Assembly (NCBI RefSeq): GCF_044324785.1 | Contig: NZ_CP172127.1 | DNA: 64,000 bases | Origin: Escherichia coli | Lineage (GTDB): Bacteria; Pseudomonadota; Gammaproteobacteria; Enterobacterales; Enterobacteriaceae | Reading direction: 5' to 3' (one strand) | Translations under genes and position numbers: made by a program | In this document: positions 39,580-64,000 of the stretch, piece by piece | Layout of the letters: every line of letters starts with the position of its first letter | Numbering within the stretch: the first letter of the stretch is position 1 | Notes under the pieces: generated by a model | The model's input: the letters and a program-made list of their open reading frames with translations, nothing else | What the model was told of the DNA's origin: nothing | Database searches by the model: none

Positions 39580-39624
39580 TGGCGCGCCCTGCAGGATTCG
39601 AACCTGCGGCCCACGACTTAGAAG
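39580..39624 (-). tRNA. argU: 3'-terminal 45 nt of tRNA-Arg(UCU) argU (anticodon loop through CCA): prophage attachment-site remnant (attR-like), not a complete tRNA
   Basis: Reverse complement reads CTTCTAAGTCGTGGGCCGCAGGTTCGAATCCTGCAGGGCGCGCCA, matching the 3' part of argU as I recall it; upstream sequence does not continue the tRNA. Confidence 0.7.
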
Positions 39625-40046
39625 TTCCTAGAACGACATTTTAAGTCAACAACTTACCGCGCCATCTCTGCGCTCACACGTCCCACTACCTCAAAACATG
39701 TAAAGCCTTGCAAGCCATTGTGAGGCCTTATGTGTCTCAGTTTTGTCCCTCTTTTTTGTACCAAAAAACATAGCAATTGAGGATAAACCTCATGCTATTT
39801 TCGCTTATATGCCTCTAAAGGCATGGCGCTTAAATAGATAAAAACACCACAAAAGCATAAAAAACCACACAGTAAAACCGCAACATAAAACAATAACAGA
39901 TAATTAAACCAAAAACAGATAGCGCATTGTGATAATCATTCAATACTAAACAAAATATAAACAGTGGAGCAATATGTAATTGACTCATTAAGTTAGATAT
40001 AAAAAATACATATTCAATCATTAAAACGATTGAATGGAGAACTTTT

Positions 40047-41000
40047 ATGCGGGCGAAACTTCTGGGAATAGTCCTGACAACCCCTATTGCGATCAGCTCT
40101 TTTGCTTCTACCGAGACTATATCGTTTACTCCTGACAACATAAATGCGGACATTAGTCTTGGAACTCTGAGCGGAAAAACAAAAGAGCGCGTTTATCTAG
40201 CTGAAGAAGGAGGCCGAAAAGTCAGTCAACTCGACTGGAAATTCAATAACGCTGCAATTATTAAAGGTGCAATTAATTGGGATTTGATGCCCCAGATATC
40301 TATTGGGGCTGCGGGCTGGACTACTCTCGGCAGCCGGGGTGGCAATATGGTCGATCAGGACTGGATGGATTCCAGTAACCCCGGAACCTGGACAGATGAA
40401 AGTAGGCACCCTGATACACAACTCAATTATGCTAACGAATTTGATCTGAATATCAAAGGCTGGCTCCTCAACGAACCCAATTACCGCCTGGGACTCATGG
40501 CCGGATATCAGGAAAGCCGTTATAGCTTTACAGCCAGAGGTGGTTCCTATATCTACAGTTCTGAGGAGGGATTCAGAGATGATATCGGCTCCTTCCCGAA
40601 TGGAGAAAGAGCAATCGGCTACAAACAACGTTTTAAAATGCCCTACATTGGCTTGACTGGAAGTTATCGTTATGAAGATTTTGAACTCGGTGGCACATTT
40701 AAATACAGCGGCTGGGTGGAATCATCTGATAACGATGAACACTATGACCCGGGAAAAAGAATCACTTATCGCAGTAAGGTCAAAGACCAAAATTACTATT
40801 CTGTTGCAGTCAATGCAGGTTATTACGTAACACCTAACGCAAAAGTTTATGTTGAAGGCGCATGGAATCGGGTTACGAATAAAAAAGGTAATACTTCACT
40901 TTATGATCACAATGATAACACTTCAGACTACAGCAAAAATGGTGCAGGCATAGAAAACTATAACTTCATCACTACTGCTGGTCTTAAGTACACCTTTTAA
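40047..41000 (+). CDS. ompT: Outer-membrane protease OmpT (omptin family)
   Basis: 317-aa ORF MRAKLLGIVLTTPIAISSFA...; recognised as OmpT. Confidence 0.9.
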   Translation: MRAKLLGIVLTTPIAISSFASTETISFTPDNINADISLGTLSGKTKERVYLAEEGGRKVSQLDWKFNNAAIIKGAINWDLMPQISIGAAGWTTLGSRGGNMVDQDWMDSSNPGTWTDESRHPDTQLNYANEFDLNIKGWLLNEPNYRLGLMAGYQESRYSFTARGGSYIYSSEEGFRDDIGSFPNGERAIGYKQRFKMPYIGLTGSYRYEDFELGGTFKYSGWVESSDNDEHYDPGKRITYRSKVKDQNYYSVAVNAGYYVTPNAKVYVEGAWNRVTNKKGNTSLYDHNDNTSDYSKNGAGIENYNFITTAGLKYTF

Positions 41001-41230
41001 CAACGTTAAATAGATTTTCTCCCCGGTGGTATTGTATCGCCCCGGGGAATTTGTTTACCGTTAAGAGCAACAATATCCCCTAAACTTGTAAGCATTTAAC
41101 CTGCCTCCTAACGTGTAAGCTCTTACCACAACACTAGACTCAATATATTCAAATTCGCTATGCCGTGACATCATTTAACACCTTGTAATTCATCGCCATA
41201 ATTGATTTAATTCACAAATAAAACTATAAC

Positions 41231-41899
41231 ATGGTGAAATTGATGAAAAAAAACACAGATGATGGGGCTAAAATTTACACACCACTTACCCTAAAGCTTT
41301 ATGACTGGTGGGTTTTGGGAGTATCAAATCGGCTTGCATGGGGATGTCCTACAAAGGAACACCTTCTTCCACACTTTCTGGAACATTTAGGTAACAACCA
41401 TCTGGATATTGGTGTTGGAACTGGGTTTTACCTTACTCACGTACCTGAGAGTAGTCTGATATCTTTAATGGATTTGAACGAAGCTAGCCTGAACGCGGCA
41501 TCTACAAGGGCTGGGGAATCAAAAATTAAACATAAAATTAGCCATGATGTTTTTGAACCTTATCCCGCGGCGTTACATGGCCAATTTGATTCCATTTCCA
41601 TGTTTTACCTTCTTCACTGCCTGCCTGGAAATATATCTACAAAAAGCTGTGTAATACGCAATGCGGCGCAGGCCTTAACTGACGATGGAACTCTATACGG
41701 AGCCACAATTCTTGGCGATGGAGTTGTGCACAATAGCTTCGGTCAAAAACTGATGCGCATTTACAATCAGAAAGGCATCTTTTCAAACACAAAAGATTCC
41801 GAAGAAGGCTTAACACATATACTCTCAGAGCATTTCGAGAATGTTAAAACCAAGGTTCAAGGTACTGTAGTAATGTTTTCCGCTTCAGGGAAAAAATAG
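41231..41899 (+). CDS. Class I SAM-dependent methyltransferase (intact counterpart of the K-12 DLP12 ybcY pseudogene, by position)
   Basis: 222-aa ORF with glycine-rich SAM-binding motif DIGVGTGFY; ybcY assignment is from context only. Confidence 0.55.
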   Translation: MVKLMKKNTDDGAKIYTPLTLKLYDWWVLGVSNRLAWGCPTKEHLLPHFLEHLGNNHLDIGVGTGFYLTHVPESSLISLMDLNEASLNAASTRAGESKIKHKISHDVFEPYPAALHGQFDSISMFYLLHCLPGNISTKSCVIRNAAQALTDDGTLYGATILGDGVVHNSFGQKLMRIYNQKGIFSNTKDSEEGLTHILSEHFENVKTKVQGTVVMFSASGKK

Positions 41900-42403
41900 C
41901 ATCCAACCGCAGCACGTTCTTGCATACGCCGTGTCTGCGGTTTAATTTTCACTCTCAAATATTGTAGTTAAGTACAATCATGATTCTTTGGACTATATAA
42001 ATTTTCTTGTAATTAGTTCTTTAGCCGAAATTTTAAAACAATTATTTATTCAAGGGATGGACTCTATTAGGAACTATCTCAAAAACATGAATAACCACCA
42101 TCTTACGATTGAATTATTTTACAGAGTATTCTTATTGAGAAAAACAACAGCAGGTACACCAAATAATATAGAAATGTAAATTTAGGTTCATTAATCTTTT
42201 GAGTTACAACCTAAACTTTCCGTTAATCACTAAGATATCAATAGATTATACTCACTGAGCGCACGTTTTTTACAATTATTATTTCTCACATCAAAATGCG
42301 CATACCAATCTGTTATTTGACACTTTCTTATTTGTTACTAGAGTTAATTGGGTGCTGACAAGGCACATGTTATTTACAATTTGAAAATCAGAGGAGAAAT
42401 GAT

Positions 42404-42586: not shown

Positions 42587-42616
42587 TTTATTACCCCCTA
42601 CATTCGTGAATAACTG

Positions 42617-42638: not shown

Positions 42639-42658
42639 CTCGCAGTGAAAACTCTGGA

Positions 42659-43165: not shown

Positions 43166-43201
43166 ACTATAGACTTCAATTTCTTTTAGGATAAACAGAT
43201 T

Positions 43202-43726: not shown

Positions 43727-44617
43727 ATGTTTAGACACGTGAAAAAACTTCAATATACAGTACGTGTAAGTGAGCCAAACCCAGGCTTGGCTAATCTACT
43801 TTTAGAACAATTCGGCGGGCCACAGGGTGAGCTTGCAGCAGCATGCCGATACTTCACTCAAGGCTTAAGTGATGAAGATGCAGGCCGAAGGGATATGCTG
43901 ATGGACATAGCAACAGAAGAACTAAGTCATCTCGAAATTATTGGTTCTCTTGTTGGTATGCTCAACAAAGGTGCAAAAGGAGCACTTGCTGAAGGAACTG
44001 AGAATGAAGCTGAGCTTTACCGTTCCTTAACTCAAAATGGCAATGACAGCCATATAACTTCTCTCCTCTACGGAGGAGGCCCAGCATTAACTAATTCAGC
44101 TGGAGTACCCTGGACTGCAGCTTATGTTGATACTATTGGCGAAGTCACGGCCGATCTTCGTTCAAATATTGCAGCTGAAGCTCGGGCAAAGATCATTTAC
44201 GAACGTCTCATTAATGTTACTGATGATCCTGGAGTAAAAGACACTCTGGCATTTTTAATGACCAGGGAAGCAGCACACATGCTTTCATTTGAAAAAGCAT
44301 TACATTCAATTCGTAACACCTTTCCACCAGGGAAATTACCACCAATTGAGAAATACAAAAACGTATATTACAACATGTCAGAAGGTGAAGACGTCAGAGG
44401 TAGTTGGAACAGTGATGAAAACTTTGACTATGTTTCCGATCCAGTTCCAGCGGTTGACGGTGGGGATGGGAAGGCCTCGATAAATCTTTCGACCAAGCAA
44501 GAAGCTATGATAAAAGCTATGGCAACAAGGTTGAAATCCCATGAAGACATCAATCCTGTCACTGGCGCTGAGCTTGCTGAAGGAGAACCACAAACAAAGA
44601 TAAATAGTAAAAACTAA
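43727..44617 (+). CDS. Non-haem manganese catalase (KatN-like)
   Basis: 296-aa ORF with Mn-catalase-like segments (EELSHLEIIG, ARAKIIYERLI, REAAHMLSFEKAL); operon structure mirrors Salmonella yciGFE-katN. Confidence 0.65.
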   Translation: MFRHVKKLQYTVRVSEPNPGLANLLLEQFGGPQGELAAACRYFTQGLSDEDAGRRDMLMDIATEELSHLEIIGSLVGMLNKGAKGALAEGTENEAELYRSLTQNGNDSHITSLLYGGGPALTNSAGVPWTAAYVDTIGEVTADLRSNIAAEARAKIIYERLINVTDDPGVKDTLAFLMTREAAHMLSFEKALHSIRNTFPPGKLPPIEKYKNVYYNMSEGEDVRGSWNSDENFDYVSDPVPAVDGGDGKASINLSTKQEAMIKAMATRLKSHEDINPVTGAELAEGEPQTKINSKN

Positions 44618-48725: not shown

Positions 48726-48727
48726 CC

Positions 48728-48783: not shown

Positions 48784-49383
48784 TCAGAACTTATAACCGA
48801 CGCCCACGATGAAACCGGCAGTGCGCCAGTCGCCACTGCCGGAGCCTTCATAAGCAATATCAATAGCCACGGATTCGGTCGGGTTAAACTGCACGCCAGC
48901 TCCCCACGCCAGAGAGGTGTTACTGTGGCGAGCGTCATCACTTCCGGTCAGCACGTCGTGCGTTTTTCCCTTGTTGTCAGTTACGCGGAGATAATCCCCG
49001 GAAAAAGTCGACACACGGCTGTAAGCCACGCCTGCCATCGCATACGCGCTGAACCATTCATTCACGCGTACAGACGGCCCCGCCATCACGCTGAACCAGC
49101 GGTTACGAACGGAATCTTCATGCCAGCGGGTATCGCTGTAATGGGTCAGCTGGCGATTCTTGTCTCCTGCATAGCTGAAAGACGTCACCATCCCCAGTGT
49201 GTCCGTAAACTCATAACGGTATTTCACGTTAATCCCGTTCAGATCATCGCTGCCGGGAACGTTCGTCGAGACATGAAGATACCCTGCGCTCAGCGTGGAC
49301 TGATGTTCAGACGCCCATGCAGGCGCACCGGATACGGCCAGACAAATGGCTGCGGACAAAATGGCGGCATAAAGTTTACGCAT
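48784..49383 (-). CDS. lom: Outer-membrane protein Lom (Ail/Lom family)
   Basis: 199-aa ORF with signal peptide and beta-barrel pattern, ends with terminal F; position between J and stf as in lambda. Confidence 0.85.
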   Translation of the reverse strand: MRKLYAAILSAAICLAVSGAPAWASEHQSTLSAGYLHVSTNVPGSDDLNGINVKYRYEFTDTLGMVTSFSYAGDKNRQLTHYSDTRWHEDSVRNRWFSVMAGPSVRVNEWFSAYAMAGVAYSRVSTFSGDYLRVTDNKGKTHDVLTGSDDARHSNTSLAWGAGVQFNPTESVAIDIAYEGSGSGDWRTAGFIVGVGYKF

Positions 49384-49452: not shown

Positions 49453-52400
49453 TCAACGAATACTGATGCCGGAAGCGGCTTTTTTGGTCACAATCACCGT
49501 ACAGTCGGTGATATTACCTGCCCACTGATTGCCTTTATGGAAAACCTTAAACTCCAGAGTGACGCTTCCCCTGCCACTAGGCATATCAATAACCGCACTG
49601 TAGCTACCGGGAATGGCCCCTTTAGTTTCTCTGGATGCGATTAATACACCGTTTTTGCGAACTTCAAAACCATAACCCGTGTATCTTGTACCTCCCGGGT
49701 TATTACCACTTCCCGGATCGCTATACGCTATTCCGTTAAAGATAATGGGCGGAATAATGATTTGACGGTCAAAGTTATGATCATCGCTGATGGTGACTGT
49801 AACCGTCCCGTTTGGTGTTTCCGTGTTACCCCACGTACCAGCCTGTTTCGGAAATGATTTGGATACAGCTTTAACGAAGTCACCTCTGACCTGAGTCGCC
49901 TCCAGCATGCCCTTAATCGTACAGTTCTGGTTAATCGTGACATTGTTGAGCGTTCCTGAGTTCGCATTCACACTACCACTGATATCCGCATTTTTAGCGG
50001 TCAGCTTTCCGTCTGATGTCAGGGAAAATACCGGAGGACTGCCACCGCTGGTAATGGTGGGGGCTGTCAGGCGCTTCAGGAACACGTCGTTCATGAATAT
50101 CTGGTTGCCCTGCGCCACAAACATCGGCGTTTCATTCCCGTTTGCCGGGTCAATAAACGCGATACGGTTAGCGGCAACCAGAAACTGGCTCAGCTTGCCT
50201 TCCTCCGTGTCCTCCATGCTGAGGCCAATACCCGCGACATAATGTTTGCCGTCTTTGGTCTGCTCAATTTTGACGCCCCACATGGCATTCCATTTATCGT
50301 TAGCGTCCTTCCACTCTTTCGAAAACTCATCCAGTCTGCTGGCGTTATCCTCCGTCAGATCAACTTTTTCCAGCAGCGCTTTACCGAGATGGGATTCGGT
50401 TATCTTGCCTTTGAAAAAATCCAGGTAACCTTCCGCATCATCGCTCGCCCGACCGACGGCCTCCACGAATGCCGATTTGCCAACGGTGTTCACACTGCGG
50501 ATATAAAAGTAATAATCATGGCCCGGTTTGATATTGATACTGGCGGCTATCCAGTACAGCGCCGTACCAAGATAGCGGGCTGTGGTTTCAACCTGCCTGA
50601 TATCGGTAATCCGCTTTTCCGAGAACCAGAACTCAAACTGTACCGTCGGGTCATAAACGGCAAGATGCGGCGTGGCGGTTATCTGAAAATAGCCCGGCGT
50701 CAGCTCAATCCTCGACGGTGCTGCCGGTGCGGCAATCCGGAACGATACCGACGCCGGATCGCCCTGCTGCCCCCACGCATTTACCGCCCGGACTGTCAGC
50801 CTGTAGTTCCCCAGCGCCAGTTGCGTGAAGCGGTATGTGGTTTCCGTCGTCCGGGCCGTGCTGACCAGCCGCTCACTGCCGTCATCCGCTGTTACGGTCA
50901 GACGGAGCAGGAAGCTCACGCCCTTCACCACCTTCGGCGTGTCCCAGCGCGCCAGCACCTGATATTCCCCGCTGTCTGCGGTGACTTCGGCGGTCAGGTG
51001 CTGCACCGCTGGCGGCGTGACACCATTCACCGTGCCGCTCTGGTCGCCGTCAAAGTGCGCCCCGTTATCCACGATGGCTTCTTTTTCCGGTACATGCTGC
51101 ACGGCAGTGATGGCATACGTGCCGTCATCGTTCTCACGGATACTCACACAGCGGAACAGGCGCTGACGCAACGTCGGCAACTTCAGCCCCCACACACTGT
51201 ATTCTGCAACGCCGTCAGGAACCCGGTTCACTTTCACCTTAAGTCCGTCGGTGACGGACTGAACCTCCACGCTGACCGGATTACCACTTCCGTCAACCAG
51301 GCTTATCAGCGTGGTACCGGAGGATGGCAGCGTGATTTCACGGTCGAGCGTCAGCGTCCGGGTCTGGCTGTTCACCGCCAGCACGCGACCACCGGTGCTG
51401 ATACCGGCATAGTCATCATCGCAGATTTCAATGACATCGCCCGGTACATGGCGAAGCCCTTCAGCACCCACGCTGAAATCCACGGTCTGCGTCTCCAGCA
51501 GTTCCGTTTTAATCAGCCACAGCCCGGCGCGGTGTGCCTGCCCCCGGCTGGTACAGCCAAAGGCATCCATCTTCGTGACATTACGACCGTAACGGGCAAT
51601 GGCCTGCGTATCTTCAACAAGCTCTGTCGCCGTCTCCCAGCCGTTGTTCGGGTCAATCCAGTTCACCTCAACGGCATTATGGCGGTCCTTCAGGGCGCTG
51701 AAGCTGTAGCGGAACGGCGCGCCATCATCCGGCATCACCACATTACTGCGGTTATAGGTCCACACCTTATCTGATGGTCGGTCCTGCACGAACGTCAGCG
51801 TCTGCCCGTTCCATACCGGCATACAGCGCATCGCCGAGCAGAAATCACTGAGCACATCCCACGCCTTACGCTGCGTGGTCAGGTAGGCATTACAGGTGAT
51901 GCGCGGCTCCGTGCCGCCAAAACCGTCCGGCACTGACTGGTCGCAGTACTGGCCGATGACATACAGCGCCCATTTATCCACATCCGCCGCACCAAGACGT
52001 TTCCCCATGCCGTAGCGCGGGTGGGTCAGCATATCCCACAGACACCAGGCCGGGTTGTTGCTGTATGCCGGCTTAAACGTTCCGTCACAGATACCGCTGT
52101 ATTGCCGCGTCTGCGGGTTATAGTTCGACGGCACCTGCAGAATGCGCCCGCGAAGATGATAATTACGGCTCACCTGCTGGCTGCCGAACTGCTCCGAGTC
52201 CACCTGCACGCCGACCAGTGCCGTGTTCGGGTAGCACTGTTTCACATCGATGATTTCGGTGTATGACGACCAGAGCGTTTTGTTCTGCAGCTGGTCTGTG
52301 GTGCTGTCCGGCGTCATCCTGCGCATCCGGATATTAAACGGGCGCGGCGGCAGGCTACCCACCACCACCGAGGCCAGATACTGCGAGGTGGTTTTGCCCT

Positions 52401-53598: not shown

Positions 53599-54239
53599 TT
53601 GTCGGTGTACCTCTCTCGTTTGCTCAGTTGTTCAGGAATATGGTGCAGCAGCTCGCCGTCGCCGCAGTAAATTGCGGCGTGATTCGGCACTGATGAACCA
53701 AAACAGCACAGCAGCACATCGCCCGGCTGTGCCGCTGACAACGGCACCTGATACAGCCCCGTCGCCTCCAGATTATCCAGATAGAGATTCTGGCCGTTAC
53801 GCCACCAGTCATCCTCACGATGAAAGTCCGGCATCTCAATCCCCGCCAGATGATAAGCATCCCGGAACAGTGTGTAACAGTCCGTCACACCGTGCTCAAA
53901 GCGCCGCCCGGTGAGATGCGGCACACAGCGGAACTTATGAATCGTCCCCCGGCAGACCAGCCACCACGGCAAATCACTCTGCACCTGCAGCCGCCGGTCG
54001 GCCTCACTCAGCCAGGGCAGACCACCGGGGTGGCTGTGGACCAGCGCCACAATCTCACCCTGCATTTCTGCCTGCAGCCAGTCTTCCGGCGACATACGGA
54101 AATACGCCTCCGGCTCACCGGAGATATTCACGCAGGGGAAATATCTTTCCCCCTCCGGCGTGCTTACCACGAAGCCGCACGACTCCGCTGGCGCACATCG
54201 CCGGGCGTGCGCCAGAATCGCTGATTCTGTCTGTGTCAT
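53496..54239 (-). CDS. K: Tail assembly protein K (MPN/JAB + NlpC/P60 domains)
   Basis: 247-aa ORF with HSHP JAB-like motif and NlpC/P60-like C-terminal region; lambda gpK-like. Confidence 0.85.
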   Translation of the reverse strand: MTQTESAILAHARRCAPAESCGFVVSTPEGERYFPCVNISGEPEAYFRMSPEDWLQAEMQGEIVALVHSHPGGLPWLSEADRRLQVQSDLPWWLVCRGTIHKFRCVPHLTGRRFEHGVTDCYTLFRDAYHLAGIEMPDFHREDDWWRNGQNLYLDNLEATGLYQVPLSAAQPGDVLLCCFGSSVPNHAAIYCGDGELLHHIPEQLSKRERYTDKWLRRTHSLWRHRAWRASAFTGIYNDLVAASTFV

Positions 54240-54244
54240 GGGAT

Positions 54245-54943
54245 TTACTGCGAAAGTTTGTTAATGGAAAGGAAGCCGCCAAAGTTGCCGACGTTATTGC
54301 GGAACTTACAACCGCTCAGGCATTTGCTGCATTTATCCTTCGTGATATCGGACGTTGGCTGGTCATATTCATCCGCGACAGCCGGACCGCTATAACCGCA
54401 CTCGTCACCGCGATAGGTCCAGGTGCAGGTGTTGGCCAGCATGATACGTCCCGGAAAAACAGCGCCATCCGTTTCCGTCGGCGTGGACAGTACAAAGGAG
54501 GCACTCACCGCGCTCAGTTCGCTGCACTGCTCAATGCGCCAGCGGCTGATCACCTCCTGCTCCGGATCGGCGTAACTGTTTCCGTTGACGAAGTTCACCG
54601 CATCCAGAAAACGGGCGTAAACCTTACGCCGGACCACCGTTCCGCCGACCAGACTCTGCATATCTTCCGCCATCCCGGTGACCATACCGTACAGGTTAGA
54701 AACCGTCAGCGTGGGGCGCGTACTGGTGCCTTTGCCATTCAGTTCAAAACCGCTCCCCTGAATGGGATACGGCTGATACTGTCGCCCCTGCCAGGTGACC
54801 GGCTCACCTTTTTCGTTCTGCTCATTACAGAAAAAATAACGTTCTCCACCGACCTCTGTCAGGTCGATTTCCCAGAGCACCACGCTGGCCGACTGCTCCG
54901 CACGGGTGCATTCATTCAGTGTTTCCTGCCGGATATCCTGCAT
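54245..54943 (-). CDS. L: Minor tail protein L
   Basis: 232-aa ORF MQDIRQETLNECTRAEQSASVVLWEIDL..., lambda gpL-like. Confidence 0.85.
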   Translation of the reverse strand: MQDIRQETLNECTRAEQSASVVLWEIDLTEVGGERYFFCNEQNEKGEPVTWQGRQYQPYPIQGSGFELNGKGTSTRPTLTVSNLYGMVTGMAEDMQSLVGGTVVRRKVYARFLDAVNFVNGNSYADPEQEVISRWRIEQCSELSAVSASFVLSTPTETDGAVFPGRIMLANTCTWTYRGDECGYSGPAVADEYDQPTSDITKDKCSKCLSGCKFRNNVGNFGGFLSINKLSQ

Positions 54944-55272
54944 CAGTTCACCACCTGTTCAAACTCTGCGCTGAACTCAACACGCAGCATACTGACCCGC
55001 GACGACCATTTTGCGCAGGTCACCTTTATCTGCCGCCACTCATAAGGCGGCGTCCACAGAAAGGATTTCCAGCCCCCGTGCTCTTCCAGAAACGACTCCA
55101 GTACCGTGGCCTCCTCACGGGGGACAGAAAGCGTCACGCTGTACGTTTTCAGGTTGGCATTCAGCCCGGCAGGCGCTCGCTGAGAATAGCCATCACCAAA
55201 GCGCACCTTTCTTACAGAAGGGACCGAAGCCACATCCATACCGGGTTTCACTTTCCAGCGGAAGGTCTTCAT
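54943..55272 (-). CDS. M: Minor tail protein M
   Basis: 109-aa ORF MKTFRWKVKPGMDVASVPSVRKVRFGDGYSQ..., lambda gpM-like. Confidence 0.85.
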   Translation of the reverse strand: MKTFRWKVKPGMDVASVPSVRKVRFGDGYSQRAPAGLNANLKTYSVTLSVPREEATVLESFLEEHGGWKSFLWTPPYEWRQIKVTCAKWSSRVSMLRVEFSAEFEQVVN

Positions 55273-57830
55273 CGTCCACCTCCGGAGAACAGGCCACCAT
55301 CACGCATCTGTGTCTGAATTTCATCACGGGCACCCTTGCGGGCCATGTCATACACCGCCTTCAGAGCAGCCGGACCTATCTGCCCGTTCGTGCCGTCGTT
55401 GTTAATCACCACATGGTTATTCTGCTCAAACGTCCCGGACGCCTGCGACCGGCTGTCTGCCATGCTGCCAGGTGTACCGACATAACCGCCGGTGGCATAG
55501 CCGCGCATCAGCCGGTAAAGATTCCCCACGCCAATCCGGCTGGTTGCCTCCTTCGTGAAGACAAACTCACCACGGTGAACAATCCCCGCTGGCTCATATT
55601 TGCCGCCGGTTCCCGTAAATCCTCCGGTTGCAAAATGGAATTTCGCCGCAGCGGCCTGAATGGCTGTACCGCCTGACGCGGATGCGCCGCCACCAACAGC
55701 CCCGCCAATGGCGCTGCCGATACTCCCGACAATCCCCACCATTGCCTGCTTAAGCAGAATTTCTGTCATCATGGACAGCACGGAACGGGTGAAGCTGCGC
55801 CAGTTCTGCTCACTGCCGGTCAGCATCGCCGCCATATTCTGTGCAATACCATCAAAGGTCTGCGTGGCTGCACTTTTTACCTGCGACATACTGTCCGTGG
55901 CGCTCTCTTCCCACTCACTCCAGCCGGACTTCAGGCCTGCCATCCAGTTCCCGCGAAGCTGGTCTTCAGCCGCCCAGGTCTTTTTCTGCTCTGACATGAC
56001 GTTATTCAGCGCCAGCGGATTATCGCCATACTGTTCCTTCAGGCGCTGTTCCGTGGCTTCCCGTTCTGCCTGCCGGTCAGTCAGCCCCCGGCTTTTCGCA
56101 TCAATGGCGGCCCGTTTTGCCCGTTGCTGCTGTGCGAATTTATCCGCCTGCTGCGCCAGCGCGTTCAGGCGCTCCTGATACGTAACCTTGTCGCCAAGTG
56201 CAGCCAGCTGGCGTTTGTACTCCAGCGTCTCATCTTTATGCGCCAGCAGGGATTTCTCCTGTGCAGACAGCTGGCGACGTTGCGCCGCCTCCTCCAGTAC
56301 CGCGAACTGACTCTCCGCCTTCCACAAATCCCGGCGCTGCTGGCTGATTTTCTCATTTGCTCCGGCATGCTTCTCCAGCGTCCGGAGTTCTGCCTGAAGC
56401 GTCAGCAGGGCAGCATGAGCACTGTCTTCCTGACGATCGCCCGCAGACACCTTCACGCCGGACTGTTTCGGCTTTTTCAGCGTCGCTTCATAATCCTTTT
56501 TCGCCGCCGCCATCAGCGTGTTGTAATCCGCCTGCAGGATTTTCCCGTCTTTCAGTGCCTTGTTCAGTTCTTCCTGACGGGCGGTATATTTCTCCAGCGG
56601 CGTCTGCAGCCGTTCGTAAGCCTTCTGCGCCTCTTCGGTATATTTCAGCCGTGACGCTTCGGTATCGCTCTGCTGCTGCGCATTTTTGTCCTGTTGAGTC
56701 TGCTGCTCAGCCTTCTTTCGGGCGGCTTCAAGCGCAAGACGGGCCTTTTCACGATCATCCCAGTAACGCGCCCGCGCTTCATCGTTAACAAAATAATCAT
56801 CCTTGCGCAGATTCCAGATGTCGTCTGCTTTCTTATACGCAGCCTCTGCCTTAATCAGCATCTCCTGCGCGGTATCAGGACGACCAATATCCAGCACCGC
56901 ATCCCACATGGATTTGAATGCCCGCGCAGTCCTGTCTGCCCAGGTCTCCAGCGTGCCCATGTTCTCTTTCAGGCGGCGGGTCTGGTCATCAAACCCTTTC
57001 GTTGCGGCCTCGTTCGCCGCCTGCAATGCCCCGGCTTCATCGCCGGAACGCTGCAACTGAGCAACATACGCAATCTGCTCCGCCGTCACGTTATGGAACT
57101 GGCGAGCCATCGCCGTCAGCCCCGACGTCGGGTCTGTGGTCAGCTTCCCGAAGGCTTCAGCGACCTTGTCCACCTCCACGCCGGATGCAGAGGAGAAACG
57201 CGCCACACTCTGGCTGATGGACGCAATCTGAGCCTCACCGCTTACCCCCGCCTTAACCAGTGCGCTGAGTGACTCGCTGGTCTGGTTAAACGTCAGCCCT
57301 GCCGCCTGCCCGGCTCTGGACAGGACCAGCATACGATCTGCCGTCAGTCCCGCCTGATTGCCGGAAAGGACCAGCGTTTTGTTGAAATCGGACAGGGTTG
57401 AGTTGCCCTGATACCAGGCATACGCCAGCGCACCGGTCGCCACCGCCAGCGAGGTGGCCCCCACCATCGGCAGGGTGATCGCACCGGCAAGCCCCCTGAA
57501 CATGGGGATCATCCCGCCGAAGGAGTCCTTCACCTGCCCCCCCTGTTGCAGCAGGATCAGCCACGGACTTTGCCCGCCTGCAAGCTGCGTGGCCACGTCG
57601 GTGAACTGTGCAGGCAGCATACGCATGGCGGCTTTATACTGCCCGACGGAAATCCCCGCTTTCTGTGCAGCCAGCGCCTGTCGGCTCAGCGACTGTTCAA
57701 CGACTGCCGCTGTTTTTTTCGCATCACTTTCCGTACCGGAAAAATGACGCCTGACTCTGGCCATCTGCTCGTCAAATCTGGCCGCATCCAGACTCAAATC
57801 AACGACCAGATCGCCTACCGGTTCAGCCAT
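55269..57830 (-). CDS. H: Tail tape-measure protein H
   Basis: 853-aa ORF, coiled-coil-rich with Gly-rich C-terminal region; lambda gpH-like by sequence and position. Confidence 0.9.
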   Translation of the reverse strand: MAEPVGDLVVDLSLDAARFDEQMARVRRHFSGTESDAKKTAAVVEQSLSRQALAAQKAGISVGQYKAAMRMLPAQFTDVATQLAGGQSPWLILLQQGGQVKDSFGGMIPMFRGLAGAITLPMVGATSLAVATGALAYAWYQGNSTLSDFNKTLVLSGNQAGLTADRMLVLSRAGQAAGLTFNQTSESLSALVKAGVSGEAQIASISQSVARFSSASGVEVDKVAEAFGKLTTDPTSGLTAMARQFHNVTAEQIAYVAQLQRSGDEAGALQAANEAATKGFDDQTRRLKENMGTLETWADRTARAFKSMWDAVLDIGRPDTAQEMLIKAEAAYKKADDIWNLRKDDYFVNDEARARYWDDREKARLALEAARKKAEQQTQQDKNAQQQSDTEASRLKYTEEAQKAYERLQTPLEKYTARQEELNKALKDGKILQADYNTLMAAAKKDYEATLKKPKQSGVKVSAGDRQEDSAHAALLTLQAELRTLEKHAGANEKISQQRRDLWKAESQFAVLEEAAQRRQLSAQEKSLLAHKDETLEYKRQLAALGDKVTYQERLNALAQQADKFAQQQRAKRAAIDAKSRGLTDRQAEREATEQRLKEQYGDNPLALNNVMSEQKKTWAAEDQLRGNWMAGLKSGWSEWEESATDSMSQVKSAATQTFDGIAQNMAAMLTGSEQNWRSFTRSVLSMMTEILLKQAMVGIVGSIGSAIGGAVGGGASASGGTAIQAAAAKFHFATGGFTGTGGKYEPAGIVHRGEFVFTKEATSRIGVGNLYRLMRGYATGGYVGTPGSMADSRSQASGTFEQNNHVVINNDGTNGQIGPAALKAVYDMARKGARDEIQTQMRDGGLFSGGGR

Positions 57831-58676: not shown

Positions 58677-59417
58677 TTAACTGGCGGTGACGGTAATTTC
58701 TGCAACCGCAGCAAACTCACCATTACCGGATACAACCGGAATGTTGACCTTGCCTGCAGCAACGCCGTTCACGGTGATGGTCATACCACTGACCGACACG
58801 GTGGCTTTTGTTTTATCCGCAGACACCGCACGAAAGCTCTTGTCGGTTACGCCCTCCGGCTGGAAGGCCACGGTCAGCGTGGTGCTCTGCCCTTTCACCA
58901 CCGAGGTGCTGGCAGGCGTCACGGTCATGCCGGTTGCCGCTGTTACCGTGCTGCGATCTTCTGCCATCGACGGACGTCCCACATTGGTGACTTTCACCGT
59001 GCGGGTGATCACTTCCTTCGCCGTCACCGCCTTACCGATACTGCTGACCCAGCCACGGAACACATCGACCGTGCCGTTCGGGAAGCGGATTTTATAGGCA
59101 CGGGTATCGCCTTCATTAAACCACGCCAGCAGCGCCTGCTGCCCCTGCTCTCCGGGCATCCACGCCAGCGTGAAGCTGGTATCTCCGGCAGATTTCTGCC
59201 CCTGCCCGGTCGCAGTCCAGTCTGCATCTTCATCATCGAGATAGCTGTCGTCATAGGACTCAGCGGTCAGTTCGCCGGGCGTCAGGTCTTTAACTTTTGC
59301 CAGACGCGACCAGTCAACGTCTGAAAGCGGATTCGCATAAGGGTCACCGCTCCCCTTATAAACCCACAGGGTGGTCCCGGCACCTTTCACCGGCATTGTA
59401 GGATTTGGTACAGGCAT
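58677..59417 (-). CDS. V: Major tail tube protein V (with C-terminal Ig-like Big_2 domain)
   Basis: ORF 58677..59447; ATG at 59417 gives 246 aa [31 protein letters not shown]..., lambda gpV. Confidence 0.9.
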
Positions 59418-59424
59418 AGCGTCC

Positions 59425-59820
59425 TCACATTTCATAGGTAATGACATAAGTCAGATCGGCTGAACTCCACAGGCCCGCATCATCGTCGCGCCGGTAGTCA
59501 TAGCCGCTGGCCACCATACTGGTGATCAAATCTGACAGTGCCGGGATATCGCTCATCACCGGATAAATCCGGGACTCCATCCACGCATCCAGCTCTGAAT
59601 CCGGCACCTGAGCAGGCAGGAAAACTTCGATATGCAGCTCCGCCTGCCAGGTATCGCTGTCCAGCTCTTCGCCCGTGTATTCAGCGCCGGTGAGATAAAC
59701 GGCAACTGCCGGAAAATCCGCCTCATCAAAAACAGCGGGGCGACCATCAAAAAACGTCGCCCCGGTGTCATGCTTCTCCAGTGCATCCAGTACGGCTGCA
59801 CGGAGTTCAGTATGTTTCAT
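59425..59820 (-). CDS. U: Tail terminator protein U
   Basis: 131-aa [36 protein letters not shown]..., lambda gpU. Confidence 0.9.
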
Positions 59821-60395
59821 CGCTTTATTACCATCCTCAGTTGATGCTGCAGCGCATAGCCCAGCTCTTTCGGAAGACGTTCACGCCGTATCCGCTCAAT
59901 ATTTTGTTTAAACGCCGTGGTCAGCGGCTCCGCCATCGGGATTTTCACCACATCAATGGGGTAACGGTTTTTCCCGGCCACACGCTGCATGACATGCCAC
60001 CGGCCATTTTTCAGTTGCTGAATAAACGCGCCGGGAATACGACGGTTACCCACCACAAGCACGCTGCCGCCACCTTTCAGGGATGAACGCTGCCCCTTTT
60101 TACGACGCCTGCGGCGCGAAAGGACAACCCGCGCATTACCCAGCTTGATTACGGGCAAATCCCCCCGGTTAACTTTGATTCTGGCCTGCGGATTTTTGAC
60201 CGTGGCCCTTTTCAGCCTGGCCCTTTCCTTTACCAGTTTCCGGCGTACCTTTGTCTCACGGGCAACCTGTGACGCCGACTGCGATATCGCGGATGAAGCA
60301 ACGCGGTTAATGGCCATTGCGGCGGCACCAGGCACCGCCGTTTTGCTGATACGGCTGAGGTTTTCAACGGCCTGCTCAAGACCTTTTATGGCCAT
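59817..60395 (-). CDS. Z: Tail completion protein Z
   Basis: 192-aa ORF MAIKGLEQAVENLSRISKTAVPGAAAMAINR..., lambda gpZ. Confidence 0.85.
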   Translation of the reverse strand: MAIKGLEQAVENLSRISKTAVPGAAAMAINRVASSAISQSASQVARETKVRRKLVKERARLKRATVKNPQARIKVNRGDLPVIKLGNARVVLSRRRRRKKGQRSSLKGGGSVLVVGNRRIPGAFIQQLKNGRWHVMQRVAGKNRYPIDVVKIPMAEPLTTAFKQNIERIRRERLPKELGYALQHQLRMVIKR

Positions 60396-60406: not shown

Positions 60407-60760
60407 TCAGCGGCGACGGTTAACGGCAGGCGGTACGCCCCGTCCAAGCCAGAGATGACAACTTCCGCCATCATCCGGCGAAACCCGATCTACCCAGAAA
60501 TTTTCCTCACCGATGGTCAGCGTGTCTCCACGCCGCAGCTGCCGCACCTCATCAGTCCGGACAAACAGGGACGGGCTGGAGCCTTCAACGCGCACGCCCT
60601 GTCCGGCATAGCTGATATTTTCAGGGTCATCAAAAACACCACGTATCACCGCACCTGACTGCTCACCGGATGTAATGGTGGCTGACGTTCCCATGTACCC
60701 GCGTATCGTTTCATCGGCGCGGGCAATGGCAGCATCGAACAGGTTATCGAAATCAGCCAC
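60407..60760 (-). CDS. FII: Head-tail joining protein FII
   Basis: 117-aa ORF MADFDNLFDAAIARADETIRGYMGTSATITSG..., lambda gpFII. Confidence 0.85.
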   Translation of the reverse strand: MADFDNLFDAAIARADETIRGYMGTSATITSGEQSGAVIRGVFDDPENISYAGQGVRVEGSSPSLFVRTDEVRQLRRGDTLTIGEENFWVDRVSPDDGGSCHLWLGRGVPPAVNRRR

Positions 60761-60771
60761 AGCGCCTCCCG

Positions 60772-61170
60772 TTATTGCATTCTGGCCAGGCCGCGCTCTG
60801 TCATTTCGGCTGCCACACCGGCAGAGACACGAAACGCCGTTCCCGGCAGCACAAATGCCACAGGTTCATCCCGCGTGGCGTGAAGTGCATCAGTATGCAG
60901 CTTCACCAGTGCCACGACCGTGACCAGTTCAGACGTATCCAGAATCACGGTATCCGGCTGCGCTGATCCCACCTCATTTTCATGTCCGGTCAGCACATTT
61001 TCCCGGCTGAGAGGGGTGTCCTGACCGGCAGTTTCATCCGTGTCATCAAGCTCCTCTTTCAGCTCTGCCACACGGAGCGCCAGTTCTTCTTTCGTCCCCG
61101 TCAGGCTGACATCACGGTTCAGTTGTTCACCCAGCGAGCGGAGACGGGCAATCAGTTCATCTTTCGTCAT
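60772..61170 (-). CDS. FI: DNA packaging protein FI
   Basis: ORF 60772..61209; ATG at 61170 gives 132 aa MTKDELIARLRSLGEQLNRDVSLTGTKEELALRVAELKEE..., lambda gpFI. Confidence 0.85.
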   Translation of the reverse strand: MTKDELIARLRSLGEQLNRDVSLTGTKEELALRVAELKEELDDTDETAGQDTPLSRENVLTGHENEVGSAQPDTVILDTSELVTVVALVKLHTDALHATRDEPVAFVLPGTAFRVSAGVAAEMTERGLARMQ

Positions 61171-61211
61171 GGACTCCTCCACAGAGAAACAATGGCCCCG
61201 AAGGGCCATGA

Positions 61212-62237
61212 TTACGCCAGTTGTACGGACACGAACTCATCAGGGTCAGCCAGCAGCATCAGCGGTGCTGACTGAATCATGGTGAACTCACGCGCCGGAT
61301 CGCCGGTGGTCACCCAGTTTTTCGGGTAACGGGCAGAGGCGTTAATGCCTTCGCGCTGTGCGTCCGCATCCTGAATGCAGCCATAGGTGCGCAGACCGCG
61401 TGCCTGAGTGTTCCCCAGCACCATCGTGTTGTCCGGCAGGAAGTTCTTTTTGACGCCGTTTTCCACGTACTGTCCGGAATACACGACGATGGCCACATCG
61501 CCATACATCCCCTTATAGGACACCGCTTTGCCCAGGTCTTTCACCGCTGTCTCCAGCTCGGAATTAGAGCCACGACGGGTATCCAGCTTCTCCTTGACGG
61601 CTTTGAAGGAACGGAACAGCGCCCAGCCTTTCGGATCGAACACGATGATATTCACCACACCGCTGGCGTTCAGCGCGTAGGCTTCGATATCGTCGGTCGG
61701 GTCATACGTGGACTTGTCACGCTTGCTCCACTCCGTGCCGCCGGACTGCGTGATGTTATTCTCCTCACTGCGGCCCATATCCACCTCAACCGGATCGAAG
61801 GCTTCACCGGTCATGGTGTATTTGCCCTTAAGCACGGCAGAAACTGCCTGCATCTCTTCGACCTGAGCAATGGCCAGCTCTTCGTCACGCATGTTCTGCA
61901 TGATGATGCGACGGCGGCGGTAAGCCGGGTCCGCCAGATTCTGCGGATCTTCATCCGGCAGGCGACGCAGGGTCATCTGCGGATTCACTTCATGCTTCGG
62001 CTTGACATATCCCGGCGTAAATTCAGAGGTGGAGCCGCCACGGGAACGGATAACCTCACCGGAAACAATCGGCGAAACGTACAGCGCCATGTTTACCAGT
62101 CCCGGAATTTGTGAGAGATAGACTTTCTCCGTGGTGAAGGGATAGCTCTCACGGAAAAAGAGACGCAGAAACAGCGGATCAAACTTAAATTTCTGCTCAT
62201 TTGCCGCCAGCAGTTGGGCGGTTGTGTACATCGACAT
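61212..62237 (-). CDS. E: Major capsid protein E
   Basis: ORF 61212..62264; ATG at 62237 gives 341 aa MSMYTTAQLLAANEQKFKFDPLFLRLFFRESYPF..., lambda gpE. Confidence 0.9.
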   Translation of the reverse strand: MSMYTTAQLLAANEQKFKFDPLFLRLFFRESYPFTTEKVYLSQIPGLVNMALYVSPIVSGEVIRSRGGSTSEFTPGYVKPKHEVNPQMTLRRLPDEDPQNLADPAYRRRRIIMQNMRDEELAIAQVEEMQAVSAVLKGKYTMTGEAFDPVEVDMGRSEENNITQSGGTEWSKRDKSTYDPTDDIEAYALNASGVVNIIVFDPKGWALFRSFKAVKEKLDTRRGSNSELETAVKDLGKAVSYKGMYGDVAIVVYSGQYVENGVKKNFLPDNTMVLGNTQARGLRTYGCIQDADAQREGINASARYPKNWVTTGDPAREFTMIQSAPLMLLADPDEFVSVQLA

Positions 62238-62292
62238 AAAAAAATCCCGTAAAAAAAGCCGCACAGGCGGCCTTTAGTGATGAAGGGTAAAG

Positions 62293-62625
62293 TTAAACGA
62301 TGCTGATTGCCGTTCCGGCAAACGCGGTCCGTTTTTTCGTCTCGTCGCTGGCAGCCTCCGGCCAGAGCACATCCTCATAACGGAACGTGCCGGACTTGTA
62401 GAACGTCAGCGTGGTGCTGGTCTGGTCAGCAGCAACCGCAAGAATGCCAACGGCAGCACCGTCGGTGGTGCCATCCCACGCAACCAGCTTACGGCTGGAG
62501 GTGTCCAGCATCAGCGGGGTCATTGCAGGCGCTTTCGCACTCAATCCGCCGGGCGCGGTTGCGGTATGAGCCGGGTCACTGTTGCCCTGCGGCTGGTAAT
62601 GGGTAAAGGTTTCTTTGCTCGTCAT
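62293..62625 (-). CDS. D: Head decoration protein D
   Basis: ATG at 62625 gives 110 aa [41 protein letters not shown]..., lambda gpD. Confidence 0.9.
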
Positions 62626-62634
62626 AAACATCCC

Positions 62635-63954
62635 TTACACTGGTGTGTTCAGCAAATCGTTAACGGCATCAGATGCCGGGTTACCTGCAGCCAGCGGTGC
62701 CGGTGCCCCCTGCATCAGACGATCCAGCGCAGTGTCACTGCGCGCCTGTGCACTCTGTGGTGCTGCGGCCAGAATGCGGCGGGCCGTTTTCACGGTCATA
62801 CCGGGGGTTTCTGCCAGCACGCGTGCCTGTTCTTCGCGTCCGTGAGCCTCCTCACAGTTGAGGATCCCCATAATGCGGCTGTTTTCTGCCGCAACCGCTG
62901 CGGTGATCTGCGCGTTCACGTCCGGCTGCGCCGCGCTGGCGTTCTCGCCCTCCGTCGCTGGCACCACGTCAGTAACGTCAGCCTGCGAAGCAGTGGCTGA
63001 AACAGTTGTTGATTGAGTCTCTTTGGTCATTCGCCCTCCTGAGAGACGGGATTTACGTGCAACCAGTGCATCACGCATGACGGTGATCGCATCGGTGCTG
63101 TTAACAAGTTCATCAGCCAGTCCGGCATCAATGGCCTCCTGACCGCTGTACACTGCAGCCTCGGTATCCAGCACAGCCTGCACGGACAGGCCGGTATATG
63201 CCGACACCTTCTGCGCAAACATCTGGCGGGTTGCGTCCATCCGGGACTGCAGTGTCTCCCGGACGTCATCCGGAAGATGGCTGTAGGGGTTGCCATCCAC
63301 CTTATGGCTGCCGCTGTAAATCAGCGTGATTTCCACACCCTGTTTCTCCAGCGCAGCACCGTAATTACTGTGAGCCATCATGACGCCGATGGAGCCTGTC
63401 CGGGCGGTCTGCGTGACCAGACGCCGGGAGGCGGCACTGGCAAGCAACTGACCTGCACTGCAGTTCATGTCGTTGGCAAGCGCCCATACCGGTTTTATGT
63501 CACGCACACGGGCGATGATGTCAGCGCAGTCAAATGCCCCCGCCACCATCCCGCCGGGCGTGTCCATATCGAGCAGAATGCCGTCCACCATCGGATCGCT
63601 GGCAGCCTGTTGCAGACGGGCGATAATGCCGTTGTAACCGGTCATCCCCGAGTACGGCTGCAGCGCCCGCGTCCGGCTGACCAGCGTGCCGGACACCGGC
63701 AGCACGGCGATGCCGTTCATGACCTGATAACTGCGGGCCTGTCGTGGTCCGTCATCATCACCGGATAATGCCAGCGTCGCGAGTGCCTCCTGGGCAGTCA
63801 GGCTGTCGCCGGACACCGCATCCGTCAGGCTGCTGATCCCAAGCTGGCCTGCAAGCGCACAAAAGAAAACCCGCGCATAGGCGGGTTCAAGCATCAGCGG
63901 CTCATTAAAGGCCATGCTGGCAATATGCGGGAGATTACGCAGCTCTGCTGTCAC
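62635..63954 (-). CDS. C: Head protease / scaffold protein C (Nu3 nested in frame)
   Basis: ORF 62635..63993; GTG at 63954 gives 439 aa VTAELRNLPHIASMAFNEPLMLEPAYARVFFCALAG..., lambda gpC (ClpP-like S49 peptidase); the 3' end of the upstream portal gene B presumably runs off the window. Confidence 0.85.
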   Translation of the reverse strand: MTAELRNLPHIASMAFNEPLMLEPAYARVFFCALAGQLGISSLTDAVSGDSLTAQEALATLALSGDDDGPRQARSYQVMNGIAVLPVSGTLVSRTRALQPYSGMTGYNGIIARLQQAASDPMVDGILLDMDTPGGMVAGAFDCADIIARVRDIKPVWALANDMNCSAGQLLASAASRRLVTQTARTGSIGVMMAHSNYGAALEKQGVEITLIYSGSHKVDGNPYSHLPDDVRETLQSRMDATRQMFAQKVSAYTGLSVQAVLDTEAAVYSGQEAIDAGLADELVNSTDAITVMRDALVARKSRLSGGRMTKETQSTTVSATASQADVTDVVPATEGENASAAQPDVNAQITAAVAAENSRIMGILNCEEAHGREEQARVLAETPGMTVKTARRILAAAPQSAQARSDTALDRLMQGAPAPLAAGNPASDAVNDLLNTPV

Positions 63955-64000
63955 TCTTCTCCTCCTCTGTTGATTGTCGCAGCCCGGATTCAAATGCTGC

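Follow-up and report, generated by a model that had tools for sequence, protein, structure and literature searches.

Among the closest relatives of the locus analysed here, DLP12 is a cryptic prophage of Escherichia coli K-12 occupying the argU site (Lindsey et al. 1989). The kind of element is already known, since the K-12 RefSeq record (feature 564755..586056) has ompT inside DLP12, ompT is carried beside attP by isolated phages (ev243, Kati and PhiR26_1) and the katN operon has been published on a lambdoid prophage. The ompT phages are of the argU type and comprise ev243 (Nesevirus ev243, NC_049955), 2G7b, Kati (PP925833), Turner, PhiR26_1 (PV340555), PhiR30_1 and PhiR29_1. An omptin, given as 'SopA outer membrane protease', is reported on two lambda-type gut phages that the article leaves unnamed (Mathieu et al. 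2020, PMC6969025). KatN (Z1921) of E. coli O157:H7 is described as a T6SS-secreted manganese catalase encoded by prophage CP-933X, which the authors call cryptic (Wan et al. 2017, PMC5363993); as to expression, the paper reports only a regulation of katN by RpoS, OxyR and H-NS.

We analysed a 64,000-nt stretch of E. coli DNA (hereafter the window), in which positions 39580-64000 very probably constitute the right arm of a full-length, DLP12-type lambda-like prophage inserted at argU (Table 1). Its one mildly new point is that ompT and the katN operon occur together on a prophage that seems fit for packaging.

The sequence at 39580-39624, TGGCGCGCCCTGCAGGATTCGAACCTGCGGCCCACGACTTAGAAG, when reverse-complemented, equals without a mismatch the 3'-terminal 45 nt of the argU tRNA-Arg(UCU) in the annotations of strains A17 and K-12, and it occurs as a single copy in the window. 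ARAGORN found no complete tRNA in the window, indicating that this segment is a tRNA fragment; nor is there any tRNA in 39625-40046. The 45-nt core is identical to the attP core of phage Kati and to the argU cores at both ends of K-12 DLP12, where ompT likewise lies just inside attR and adjoins envY. Sequence identity to DLP12 across 39580-41050 was 97.4%. When attP of phage Kati, attL of strain A17 and attR of the window were compared, the three sites had this core in common and their flanks were exchanged exactly as site-specific integration predicts. Similarity to the isolated phages starts exactly at 39580, and similarity to the unoccupied argU site of strain N3 (99.95%) stops exactly at 39624, which places ompT within the insertion. 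N3, the closest chromosomal match (99.3% over 19.6 kb), has an envY-argU-fimZ arrangement without a prophage. Of 5426 complete E. coli genomes, 2520 matched a reconstructed fimZ-argU-envY site without ompT along 80% or more of its length, as one unbroken piece in each match listed. The original prediction, which had recognised the 3' part of argU between envY and ompT, interpreted it as an attR core and placed ompT within the prophage, is borne out by these data, and the orientation of the fragment fits attR. Integration duplicates the 45-nt core, and the copy at 39580-39624 corresponds to the displaced original end of the tRNA, marking attR. The locus shows that ompT, often taken as a core E. 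coli gene, arrives on a lambda-type phage; nearly half of the complete genomes lack it at argU-envY.

Table 1 Features of the prophage right arm and its chromosomal border. Positions are those of the window.
Feature	Position	Strand	Evidence and remarks
envY	38773-39534		left of the core
attR core (argU 3' 45 nt, reverse complement)	39580..39624	.	CCA end toward envY, anticodon side toward ompT
Phage-side arm of attachment site and ompT upstream region	39625..40046	+	colinear with Kati 5981-6403 and K-12 DLP12
ompT, omptin outer-membrane protease (cargo)	40047..41000	+	NCBIfam NF008222, 707 bits (cutoff 537)
Class I SAM-dependent methyltransferase, intact homologue of K-12 pseudogene ybcY (cargo)	41231..41899	+	Pfam methyltransferase domains
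yciG-like, KGG repeats	42404-42586	+	ORF; PF10685 (KGG) from precomputed Pfam in near-identical contig L029
yciF-like, DUF892 ferritin-like	42659-43165	+	Pfam DUF892, E 3.5e-54; PF05974 precomputed in L029
yciE-like, DUF892 ferritin-like	43202-43708	+	PF05974 (DUF892), precomputed in near-identical contig L029
katN, manganese catalase, last gene of yciG-yciF-yciE-katN operon	43727..44617	+	Pfam Mn_catalase, E 6e-87
tfa, tail fibre assembly	44737-45318	-	PHROG 105; 94% protein identity to lambda Tfa
stf, side tail fibre, 1133 aa, mosaic	45318-48719	-	PHROG 295; lambda-like in part only
lom, Ail/Lom outer-membrane protein	48784..49383	-	PHROG 108, full length; 47% protein identity to lambda Lom
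J, central tail fibre/host-specificity protein	49453..52866	-	PHROG 31; 89% protein identity to lambda J
I, K, L, M, tail tip	52927..55272	-	PHROG 32, 30, 18, 14; 99.5-100% protein identity to lambda
H, tape measure protein	55269..57830	-	PHROG 24; 99.8% protein identity to lambda H
T, tail assembly chaperone	57823-58257	-	100% identical to lambda T protein
Slip site GGGAAAG, predicted -1 frameshift giving G-T	58257-58263	-	15 nt before G stop codon
G, tail assembly chaperone	58239-58661	-	100% identical to lambda G protein
V (major tail protein), U (tail terminator), Z	58677..60395	-	PHROG 41, 37, 27; 99.5-100% protein identity to lambda
FII, FI, E (major capsid protein), D (decoration protein)	60407..62625	-	PHROG 82, 92, 6020, 49; all four 100% lambda protein identity
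C/Nu3, S49 head protease and nested scaffold protein	62635..63954	-	PHROG 53, 8399; 99.5% protein identity to lambda C
B (portal), 3' end, cut by window end	63935..64000	-	colinear with lambda 4372-4437

The segment from 44.7 to 64.0 kb contains the full lambda late operon from tfa to C on the minus strand, in the order tfa, stf, lom, J, I, K, L, M, H, T, G, V, U, Z, FII, FI, E, D, C, followed by the last 66 nt of B. Each of the 19 late genes is complete and has a full-length PHROG match, and 12 of the encoded proteins show 100% identity to those of lambda. The window follows lambda (NC_001416) in its gene order from C to tfa, in its gene overlaps and in the G-T slip site; DNA identity reaches 99.1% over 14.1 kb, and only about 12 nucleotide differences were counted over the 10.9 kb between 53.1 and 64.0 kb. 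Lambda differs from the window-type prophage in lom, stf, the C-terminus of J and the immunity region, and it integrates between gal and bio using a different integrase, whereas the element studied here is found at argU. After induction, the late operon would be transcribed from a Q-controlled late promoter, and G-T would be produced by -1 frameshifting at GGGAAAG. A late operon with lambda gene order, overlaps and G-T site had been predicted, along with a head and tail module intact unlike that of K-12 DLP12, and both expectations agree with what was found: K-12 runs from tfaD straight to a gene A stub and lacks the approximately 22 kb from gene A to tfa (head and tail genes), which are undeleted in the window form, as well as approximately 8 kb of the early-left region. 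DLP12 also has IS3 and IS5 insertions, and appY and tfaX where the window has the katN operon; ompT, ybcY and tfa are common to both at 97% DNA identity. The locus is a clean, undeleted DLP12 reference that reveals what K-12 has lost; its practical value is modest.

Since the window ends inside B, the left arm was taken from contigs of other isolates that are 99.98-100% identical to it where they overlap (0-2 mismatches per 10-23 kb). The resulting composite is a 49.9-kb prophage with two copies of the core 49,927 bp apart, ending in IntD followed by an intact argU tRNA-Arg(tct). In contig L056, int (387 aa) lies at 12158-13321 and tRNA-Arg(tct) at 13337-13413, and the same arrangement is present in A17 and SCU-104. 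An int gene next to an intact argU, expected at the prophage's opposite end, was thereby located in near-identical isolates, the window itself stopping at 64000. The composite has lysis, replication and immunity genes; among the genes called in it are S, R, Rz, Q, O, P, cI, cro, exo, bet, gam and int. A full-length B continues in contigs L015 and L038, and the first 60 nt of lambda (cos) are matched exactly in L015; Nu1, A, W and B of the composite and L015 are 100% identical in protein to those of lambda. These four genes are intact in three of the four near-identical isolates examined; isolate L018 has a Q558-stop in terminase A, so that the clone, at least in part, has started to decay. The composite shares Q-ylcG-rusA-ybcO-ninE-ybcN-ybcM-ybcL-ybcK-emrE-ren with DLP12 (98.8% over 6.3 kb), its Q gene being homologous to the DLP12 marker quuD, and its int-argU region is 99.4% identical to that of K-12. 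Judging from these overlaps, the window's own genome probably has the same left arm.

The ompT-carrying argU phages match the window from the first base of the core via ompT, ybcY and tfa to C, with 96-97.5% identity over 72-85% of the region. In Kati and ev243, int, attP and ompT are contiguous, as read directly from the genomes, and ybcY and tfa are contiguous with them; OmpT is annotated in the ev243 RefSeq record. The PhiR26_1 record is in prophage order and has int and ompT at opposite ends. These phages differ from the window-type prophage in their early regions, and the place of the katN operon is taken in them by appY, an alpha/beta hydrolase or a DNA invertase. Among complete E. coli genomes, approximately 885 of 5426 matched at least 80% of a 25-kb query made of the prophage part and 579 bases of flank. 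The closest prophage match, in A17, is 99.1% identical although its chromosomal flank is only 95-98% identical, implying horizontal movement. In the index of the assembly collection, an exact match to the side tail fibre protein occurs in 255 blocks.

Could the junction be an artefact, produced by a tRNA-like sequence matching by chance or by an assembly that fused laboratory lambda to a DLP12 remnant? With 99.9% identity of the head genes to reference lambda, and only 2 mismatches against NC_001416 in the window's final 3 kb, contamination might be suspected. Yet a 45/45 match never arises in shuffled sequence (0 matches in 100 shuffles, even with 3 mismatches tolerated), J, lom and stf are unlike lambda but contiguous with both flanks, and the same junctions occur in independent assemblies (99.1% identity in A17, 99.99% in L029 and L030); we consider such an artefact extremely improbable. 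It is also very unlikely, if slightly less so, that ompT and its neighbours form a separate, older and unpackaged island at argU that merely abuts the lambda-like prophage. Such an island could account for a GC content and a strand that differ between cargo and late operon, and for cargo that varies among relatives (appY, alpha/beta hydrolase, DNA invertase or katN). It is hard to reconcile with the single core copy in the window, none lying between cargo and tfa, with the contiguity of int, attP, ompT, ybcY and tfa in Kati and ev243, or with empty-site genomes that are wholly without ompT.

That the prophage, for all its intact appearance, is functionally cryptic in the manner of K-12 DLP12 is a substantial possibility, although we give it less than an even chance. 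Point mutations or regulatory defects outside the window would then prevent excision or particle formation, and the element would persist only by vertical inheritance, carrying ompT and katN along. The nonsense codon in terminase A of L018, a truncated helix-turn-helix gene fragment annotated by PGAP next to int in A17 and SCU-104, the absence of the katN operon from isolated phages and the 255 blocks with the exact side tail fibre protein, which fit clonal vertical spread, all point in this direction. Pointing the other way, the late genes in the window are all full length and nearly identical to those of lambda, Nu1, A, W and B are intact in most of the isolates examined, the closest chromosomal relative (N3) has an empty site, and the A17 prophage is closer to the window than is its flank. 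Moreover, phages with the same int, att and ompT layout are plaque-forming or were isolated as phages.

The full-length prophage at argU could, on this evidence, excise, be packaged from cos and carry ompT and katN to a new host; its 49.9 kb are close to the upper packaging limit of lambda. We propose only tentatively, as a reading less likely than not, that it is an inducible lambda-type phage which, through lysogenic conversion at argU, passes ompT together with the complete yciGFE-katN operon from one E. coli strain to another. If active, the phage could be of importance to how protease-mediated and oxidative-stress resistance traits spread, yciGFE-katN being an oxidative-stress module and KatN a reported T6SS effector. 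If transfer were demonstrated, it would be the first case of a phage-borne katN, given that the yciGFE-katN operon is absent from every sequenced phage in a 50,697-record collection and that the O157:H7 copy is on a prophage called cryptic.

The cargo region (39.6-44.7 kb) has a GC content of 37-44%, as compared with 56-61% in the late operon, and is on the opposite strand. Its AT-rich passenger genes adjoin attR in place of the lambda b region, in which lambda has ea47, ea31 and ea59. OmpT is identical to K-12 OmpT at 315 of 317 residues, and the methyltransferase gene region displays 97-98% DNA identity to the ybcY regions of K-12, Kati and PhiR26_1. Ahead of the manganese catalase gene come those for a KGG-repeat protein and two DUF892 proteins, the composition of a yciGFE-katN operon, and annotation in A17 and O157:H7 also backs the yciGFE gene names; against the NCBIfam Bacillus-type equivalog, katN scored 167, below the cutoff of 350. 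The cluster is 97% identical in DNA to an O157:H7 locus, which we equate with the Z1921-Z1924/KatN operon of CP-933X from its matching gene content and prophage setting. In O157:H7 the cluster likewise adjoins tfa, with ompT and the ybcY methyltransferase nearby; unlike the element in the window, its prophage is located near minE, lacks the argU core and is split by an IS66-family element. The opposite orientation and lower GC of the cargo suggest that its genes may be expressed in the lysogen from promoters of their own. Promoter-like sites were no commoner than in shuffled sequence, and terminator-like sites were commoner (11 versus 4.8).

The 45-nt sequence between envY and ompT, TGGCGCGCCCTGCAGGATTCGAACCTGCGGCCCACGACTTAGAAG, matched exactly, in reverse complement, the final 45 nt of argU, the tRNA-Arg(UCU) gene as annotated in strain A17 and in K-12. 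It occurred only once in the window, and 100 shuffles gave 0 matches even when 3 mismatches were allowed. ARAGORN found no complete tRNA in the window, indicating that 39580-39624 is a tRNA fragment. The location and identity given to it in the original prediction, with envY on its left and ompT on its right, were correct. Alignment of the junctions revealed how the flanks of this core change partners. In the isolated phage Kati (attP), the core separates the int-side flank from TTCCTAGAACGAC..., which leads to ompT; in strain A17 (attL), the same int-side flank is followed by the core and the 5' half of argU; in the window (attR), the envY-side flank is followed by the core and by TTCCTAGAACGAC... 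as in Kati, leading to ompT. At the sequence level, this exchange is the pattern expected when an element integrates site-specifically at the 3' end of a tRNA gene, in agreement with the proposal that the fragment is an attR core.

Features of the attachment region, cargo and late operon, and of the left flank
Feature	Position	Strand	Remark
Rhs-type toxin gene fragments and ISAs1/ISEc1 transposase	27600-32320		left of nfrB
envY	38773-39534		left of core
argU 3' fragment (core)	39580-39624		45 nt
Segment equivalent to 'tRNA-Pro' of phage Kati	39591-39674		L005 5936-6019 in the Kati record
ompT	40047-41000	+	right of core
Class I SAM methyltransferase		+	intact homologue of K-12 pseudogene ybcY
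Four-gene cluster		+	yciG-like (KGG repeats), yciF-like and yciE-like (both DUF892), manganese catalase
Rfam IS009 (RF02111)	44777-44975	-	full-length match, in 3' part of tfa
tfa, stf, lom, J, I, K, L, M, H, T, G, V, U, Z, FII, FI, E, D, C		-	full-length PHROG matches
G-T slip site GGGAAAG	58257-58263	-	
E	61212-62237	-	intact
B, last 66 nt		-	at window end

The window resembled phages Kati and PhiR26_1 and K-12 DLP12 from exactly 39580 onwards, and resembled strain N3 (99.95%), in which the site is unoccupied, up to exactly 39624. For the chromosomal flank, N3 was the best match among complete genomes (99.3% over 19.6 kb); it carries envY, tRNA-Arg and fimZ consecutively and lacks both the prophage and ompT. 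Of 5426 complete E. coli genomes, 2520 matched a reconstructed empty site, fimZ-argU-envY, across 80% or more of its length, and it was unbroken, at 99.9% identity, among the matches listed, HS and ATCC 8739 included. The sharp boundaries, together with the ompT-free empty sites, indicated that ompT belongs to the insertion, as had been predicted. In RefSeq, the K-12 'cryptic prophage DLP12' begins at position 33 of argU and ends between ompT and envY, so that the attachment logic and the placement of ompT within the prophage were already on record. The neighbouring envY gene, immediately outside attR, encodes an AraC-family regulator and has a GC content (44-50%) below that of its neighbours. 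It adjoins argU in the empty-site strains and lies outside this insertion; it resembles prophage regulators such as appY and may be the remnant of an older event.

Gene calls, PHROG matches and the sequence itself confirmed the anticipated layout, in which cargo genes on the + strand are followed by a lambda-type late operon with its G-T slip site on the - strand. The head and tail module was intact as proposed, every late gene in the window being full length and none disrupted. Twelve late proteins were 100% identical to their lambda (NC_001416) counterparts, and C, Z, H and K showed 99.5-99.8% protein identity; the corresponding values were 94% for Tfa, 89% for J and 47% for Lom, and Stf was a 1133-aa mosaic. 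Only ~12 nt differed from lambda across 53.1-64.0 kb, and this near-identity of the head and tail shaft to the laboratory phage is notable. The IS009 match scored 227.9 bits against a gathering threshold of 117; this RNA family may have been built on conserved prophage coding sequence. In several near-identical prophages, gene E was split by an inserted element (L014 11718-20731; L020 20340-20960; L035 19023-20135) encoding an integrase, AlpA, a D5-type primase, SSB, its own capsid-E homologue and a decoration-protein homologue. The element looks like a capsid-encoding phage satellite, and its presence probably accounts for spans of 35 kb and 'DNA primase' labels among some matches in the complete-genome comparison.

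The part of the prophage beyond the window was reconstructed from near-identical draft assemblies, found by exact-protein look-up and chained through contig overlaps. Common proteins (DUF1722, a 44-aa ORF and a 106-aa ORF) led to unrelated mosaic prophages, and near-identical contigs were reached via rarer variants (terminase A with A379S, an exo variant) or by luck. Compared with the window, L029 had 2 mismatches in 23.4 kb, nfrA-envY flank included, L030 had 2 in 19.1 kb and L015 had 0 in 11.4 kb; the three evidently represent the same clone as the window. L038 and L029 were one contig, L044 was identical to L038 over 11 kb, and L055, L056 and L058 differed from L044 by 1-2 nt in 10.5 kb. 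The resulting composite has the 45-nt core at either end, 49,927 bp apart. GCA_044082275.1 (contig DBADRX010000020.1, positions 51,208-103,958) is a near-identical stand-in for the source assembly past 64000. With gene names assigned by us from gene calls, C is followed by B, W, A, Nu1, cos, ylcI, bor, Rz, R, S, a DUF1722 gene, blc and Q; then by ylcG, rusA, ybcO, ninE, ybcN, ylcH, ybcM, ybcL, ybcK, ylcJ, emrE and ren; and then by P, O, a ydaT-like gene, cro, cI, two small ORFs, kil, gam, bet, exo and four small ORFs. The last gene before int is a 56-aa ORF, 96% identical to the pre-int ORF of phage Kati and possibly Xis. After int come tRNA-Arg(tct), detected by ARAGORN, and fimZ. All the components expected past 64000 (B, W, A, Nu1, cos, lysis genes, cro/cI and int) were thus present in the composite of near-identical isolates, as was the intact argU sought beside int at the far end. 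The first 60 nt of lambda were matched exactly at cos in a near-identical contig, and Nu1, A, W and B in L015 showed 100% protein identity to lambda. In L018 (GCA_027565415.1), whose 9.7 kb of overlap with the window was 100% identical, a C-to-T change at locus position 7965 created a stop at codon 558 of the terminase large subunit A, ~6 kb past the window end; terminase A was intact in three other near-identical isolates.

Compared with the composite, K-12 DLP12 has kept five blocks: ompT with ybcY; a 5' stub of gene A with nohD; the lysis genes; Q to emrE and ren (98.8% identity); and int with argU (99.4% identity). It has lost ~22 kb comprising the head and tail genes and, in the early-left region, a further ~8 kb. 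These deletions indicated that the element in the window is an undeleted DLP12.

Contamination with laboratory lambda could account for the near-identity of the late genes, but was rejected because the same near-identity in the head and tail shaft is shared by other natural prophages such as that of A17. A tandem second element at argU was considered since a k=31 contig starting within the core runs for 71.4 kb, and was rejected because the composite puts the second core 49.9 kb away. This Logan contig (ERR10376341_114; L030, L015) starts at the equivalent of window position 39595, its first 30 nt being the end of the core, and is longer than the 49.9-kb prophage. By contig-coordinate arithmetic, its far end and that of a long contig from a second assembly are ~480 bp apart or less, some 21.4-21.9 kb past argU. 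It is likely that the assembler passed attL and stopped at a shared chromosomal repeat, a better explanation than a tandem element.

A tRNA-like gene in the phage-side arm was also rejected: ARAGORN found none, and the fold was no better than that of shuffled sequence (z = -0.46). In the GenBank record of Kati, a 'tRNA-Pro' spans the attP core and phage-side arm; the Rfam tRNA score over the equivalent window segment was weak (24.8 bits, below threshold), and the annotation is probably an error arising from the argU fragment. Among species-representative genomes, the junction between core and phage-side arm was found in a sole contig (L009 136-175; JAIJJM010000316.1, 3,563 bp), labelled as a MAG of the actinobacterium Collinsella sp. 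and almost certainly a mis-binned E. coli phage fragment. An attP-specific 69-mer had no match in IMG/VR.

Such undeleted forms are common: of the 5426 complete E. coli genomes, 885 matched 80% or more of a 25-kb query made up of the prophage part and 579 bases of flank, the closest being A17 (99.1%). The window's own genome is in neither this set nor the one-per-species genomes, in which a window-specific 66-mer had no match. A17 and SCU-104 hold complete prophages bounded by argU and int; that of A17 (46,060 bp) is colinear with phage Kati, which covers 88% of it. Isolated phages matching from the core through ompT were Kati, Turner, PhiR26_1, PhiR30_1, PhiR29_1, ev243 and 2G7b. The probable source of the PhiR phages is the panel that Brenes and Laub 2025 derived from ECOR. 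The RefSeq annotation of ev243 names an 'omptin family outer membrane protease OmpT', and an omptin labelled SopA has been described on two lambda-type gut phages, left unnamed (Mathieu et al. 2020, PMC6969025). Across genomes (loci L019-L059), the same late and lysis module was joined to widely differing early regions. Inserts between P and ybcN varied (NACHT, SIR2, BstA, HEPN, a large invasin-like gene, or emrE-ybcK), which fits a known defence and cargo hotspot of lambdoid phages.

The GC content of the cargo region was 37-44% versus 56-61% for the late operon. Its OmpT shared 315 of 317 residues with K-12 OmpT. In 380 of 5426 complete E. coli genomes the catalase cluster was matched across 80% or more of its length, and it adjoined a tail fibre assembly gene in every listed match that covers it. 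The matches included O157:H7, in which a prophage next to minE carries the cluster close to ompT. Its gene content and setting match those of the published yciGFE-katN operon (Z1921-Z1924) of prophage CP-933X. KatN has been reported as a T6SS-secreted catalase regulated by RpoS, OxyR and H-NS (PMC5363993). In related phages the position of the katN cluster holds appY, an alpha/beta hydrolase or an invertase, and the only close KatN protein matches in phage records were two unannotated contigs of 1.6-2.2 kb.

Collectively, the element is a full-length DLP12/lambda-type prophage with ompT as cargo, of an ordinary and already described kind. The presence of the katN cluster on such a prophage is mildly unusual, none of 50,697 phage genome records carrying it, and the sole mildly novel point would be that this katN-carrying version is an active phage. 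What the sequence shows is a lambda-type genome in integrated form, its att junctions exact and its late operon intact. From established lambda biology, we infer that it would be excised by IntD at the 45-nt cores, that late transcription would depend on Q, that G-T would be made by frameshifting, and that the 49.9-kb genome would be packaged from cos. This size is ~103% of the length of lambda, close to the upper packaging limit. In the lysogen, ompT and the katN operon would be expressed from their own promoters; a consensus scan found promoter-like sites no commoner than in shuffled sequence and thus has no bearing on this step.

On the chromosomal side, the region of Rhs-type toxin gene fragments and transposase left of nfrB matched A17 at only 95-97%, with gaps, versus 98.2% from nfrB through envY. 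This seems to be a variable patch of toxin genes and insertion sequences that has no connection with the prophage.
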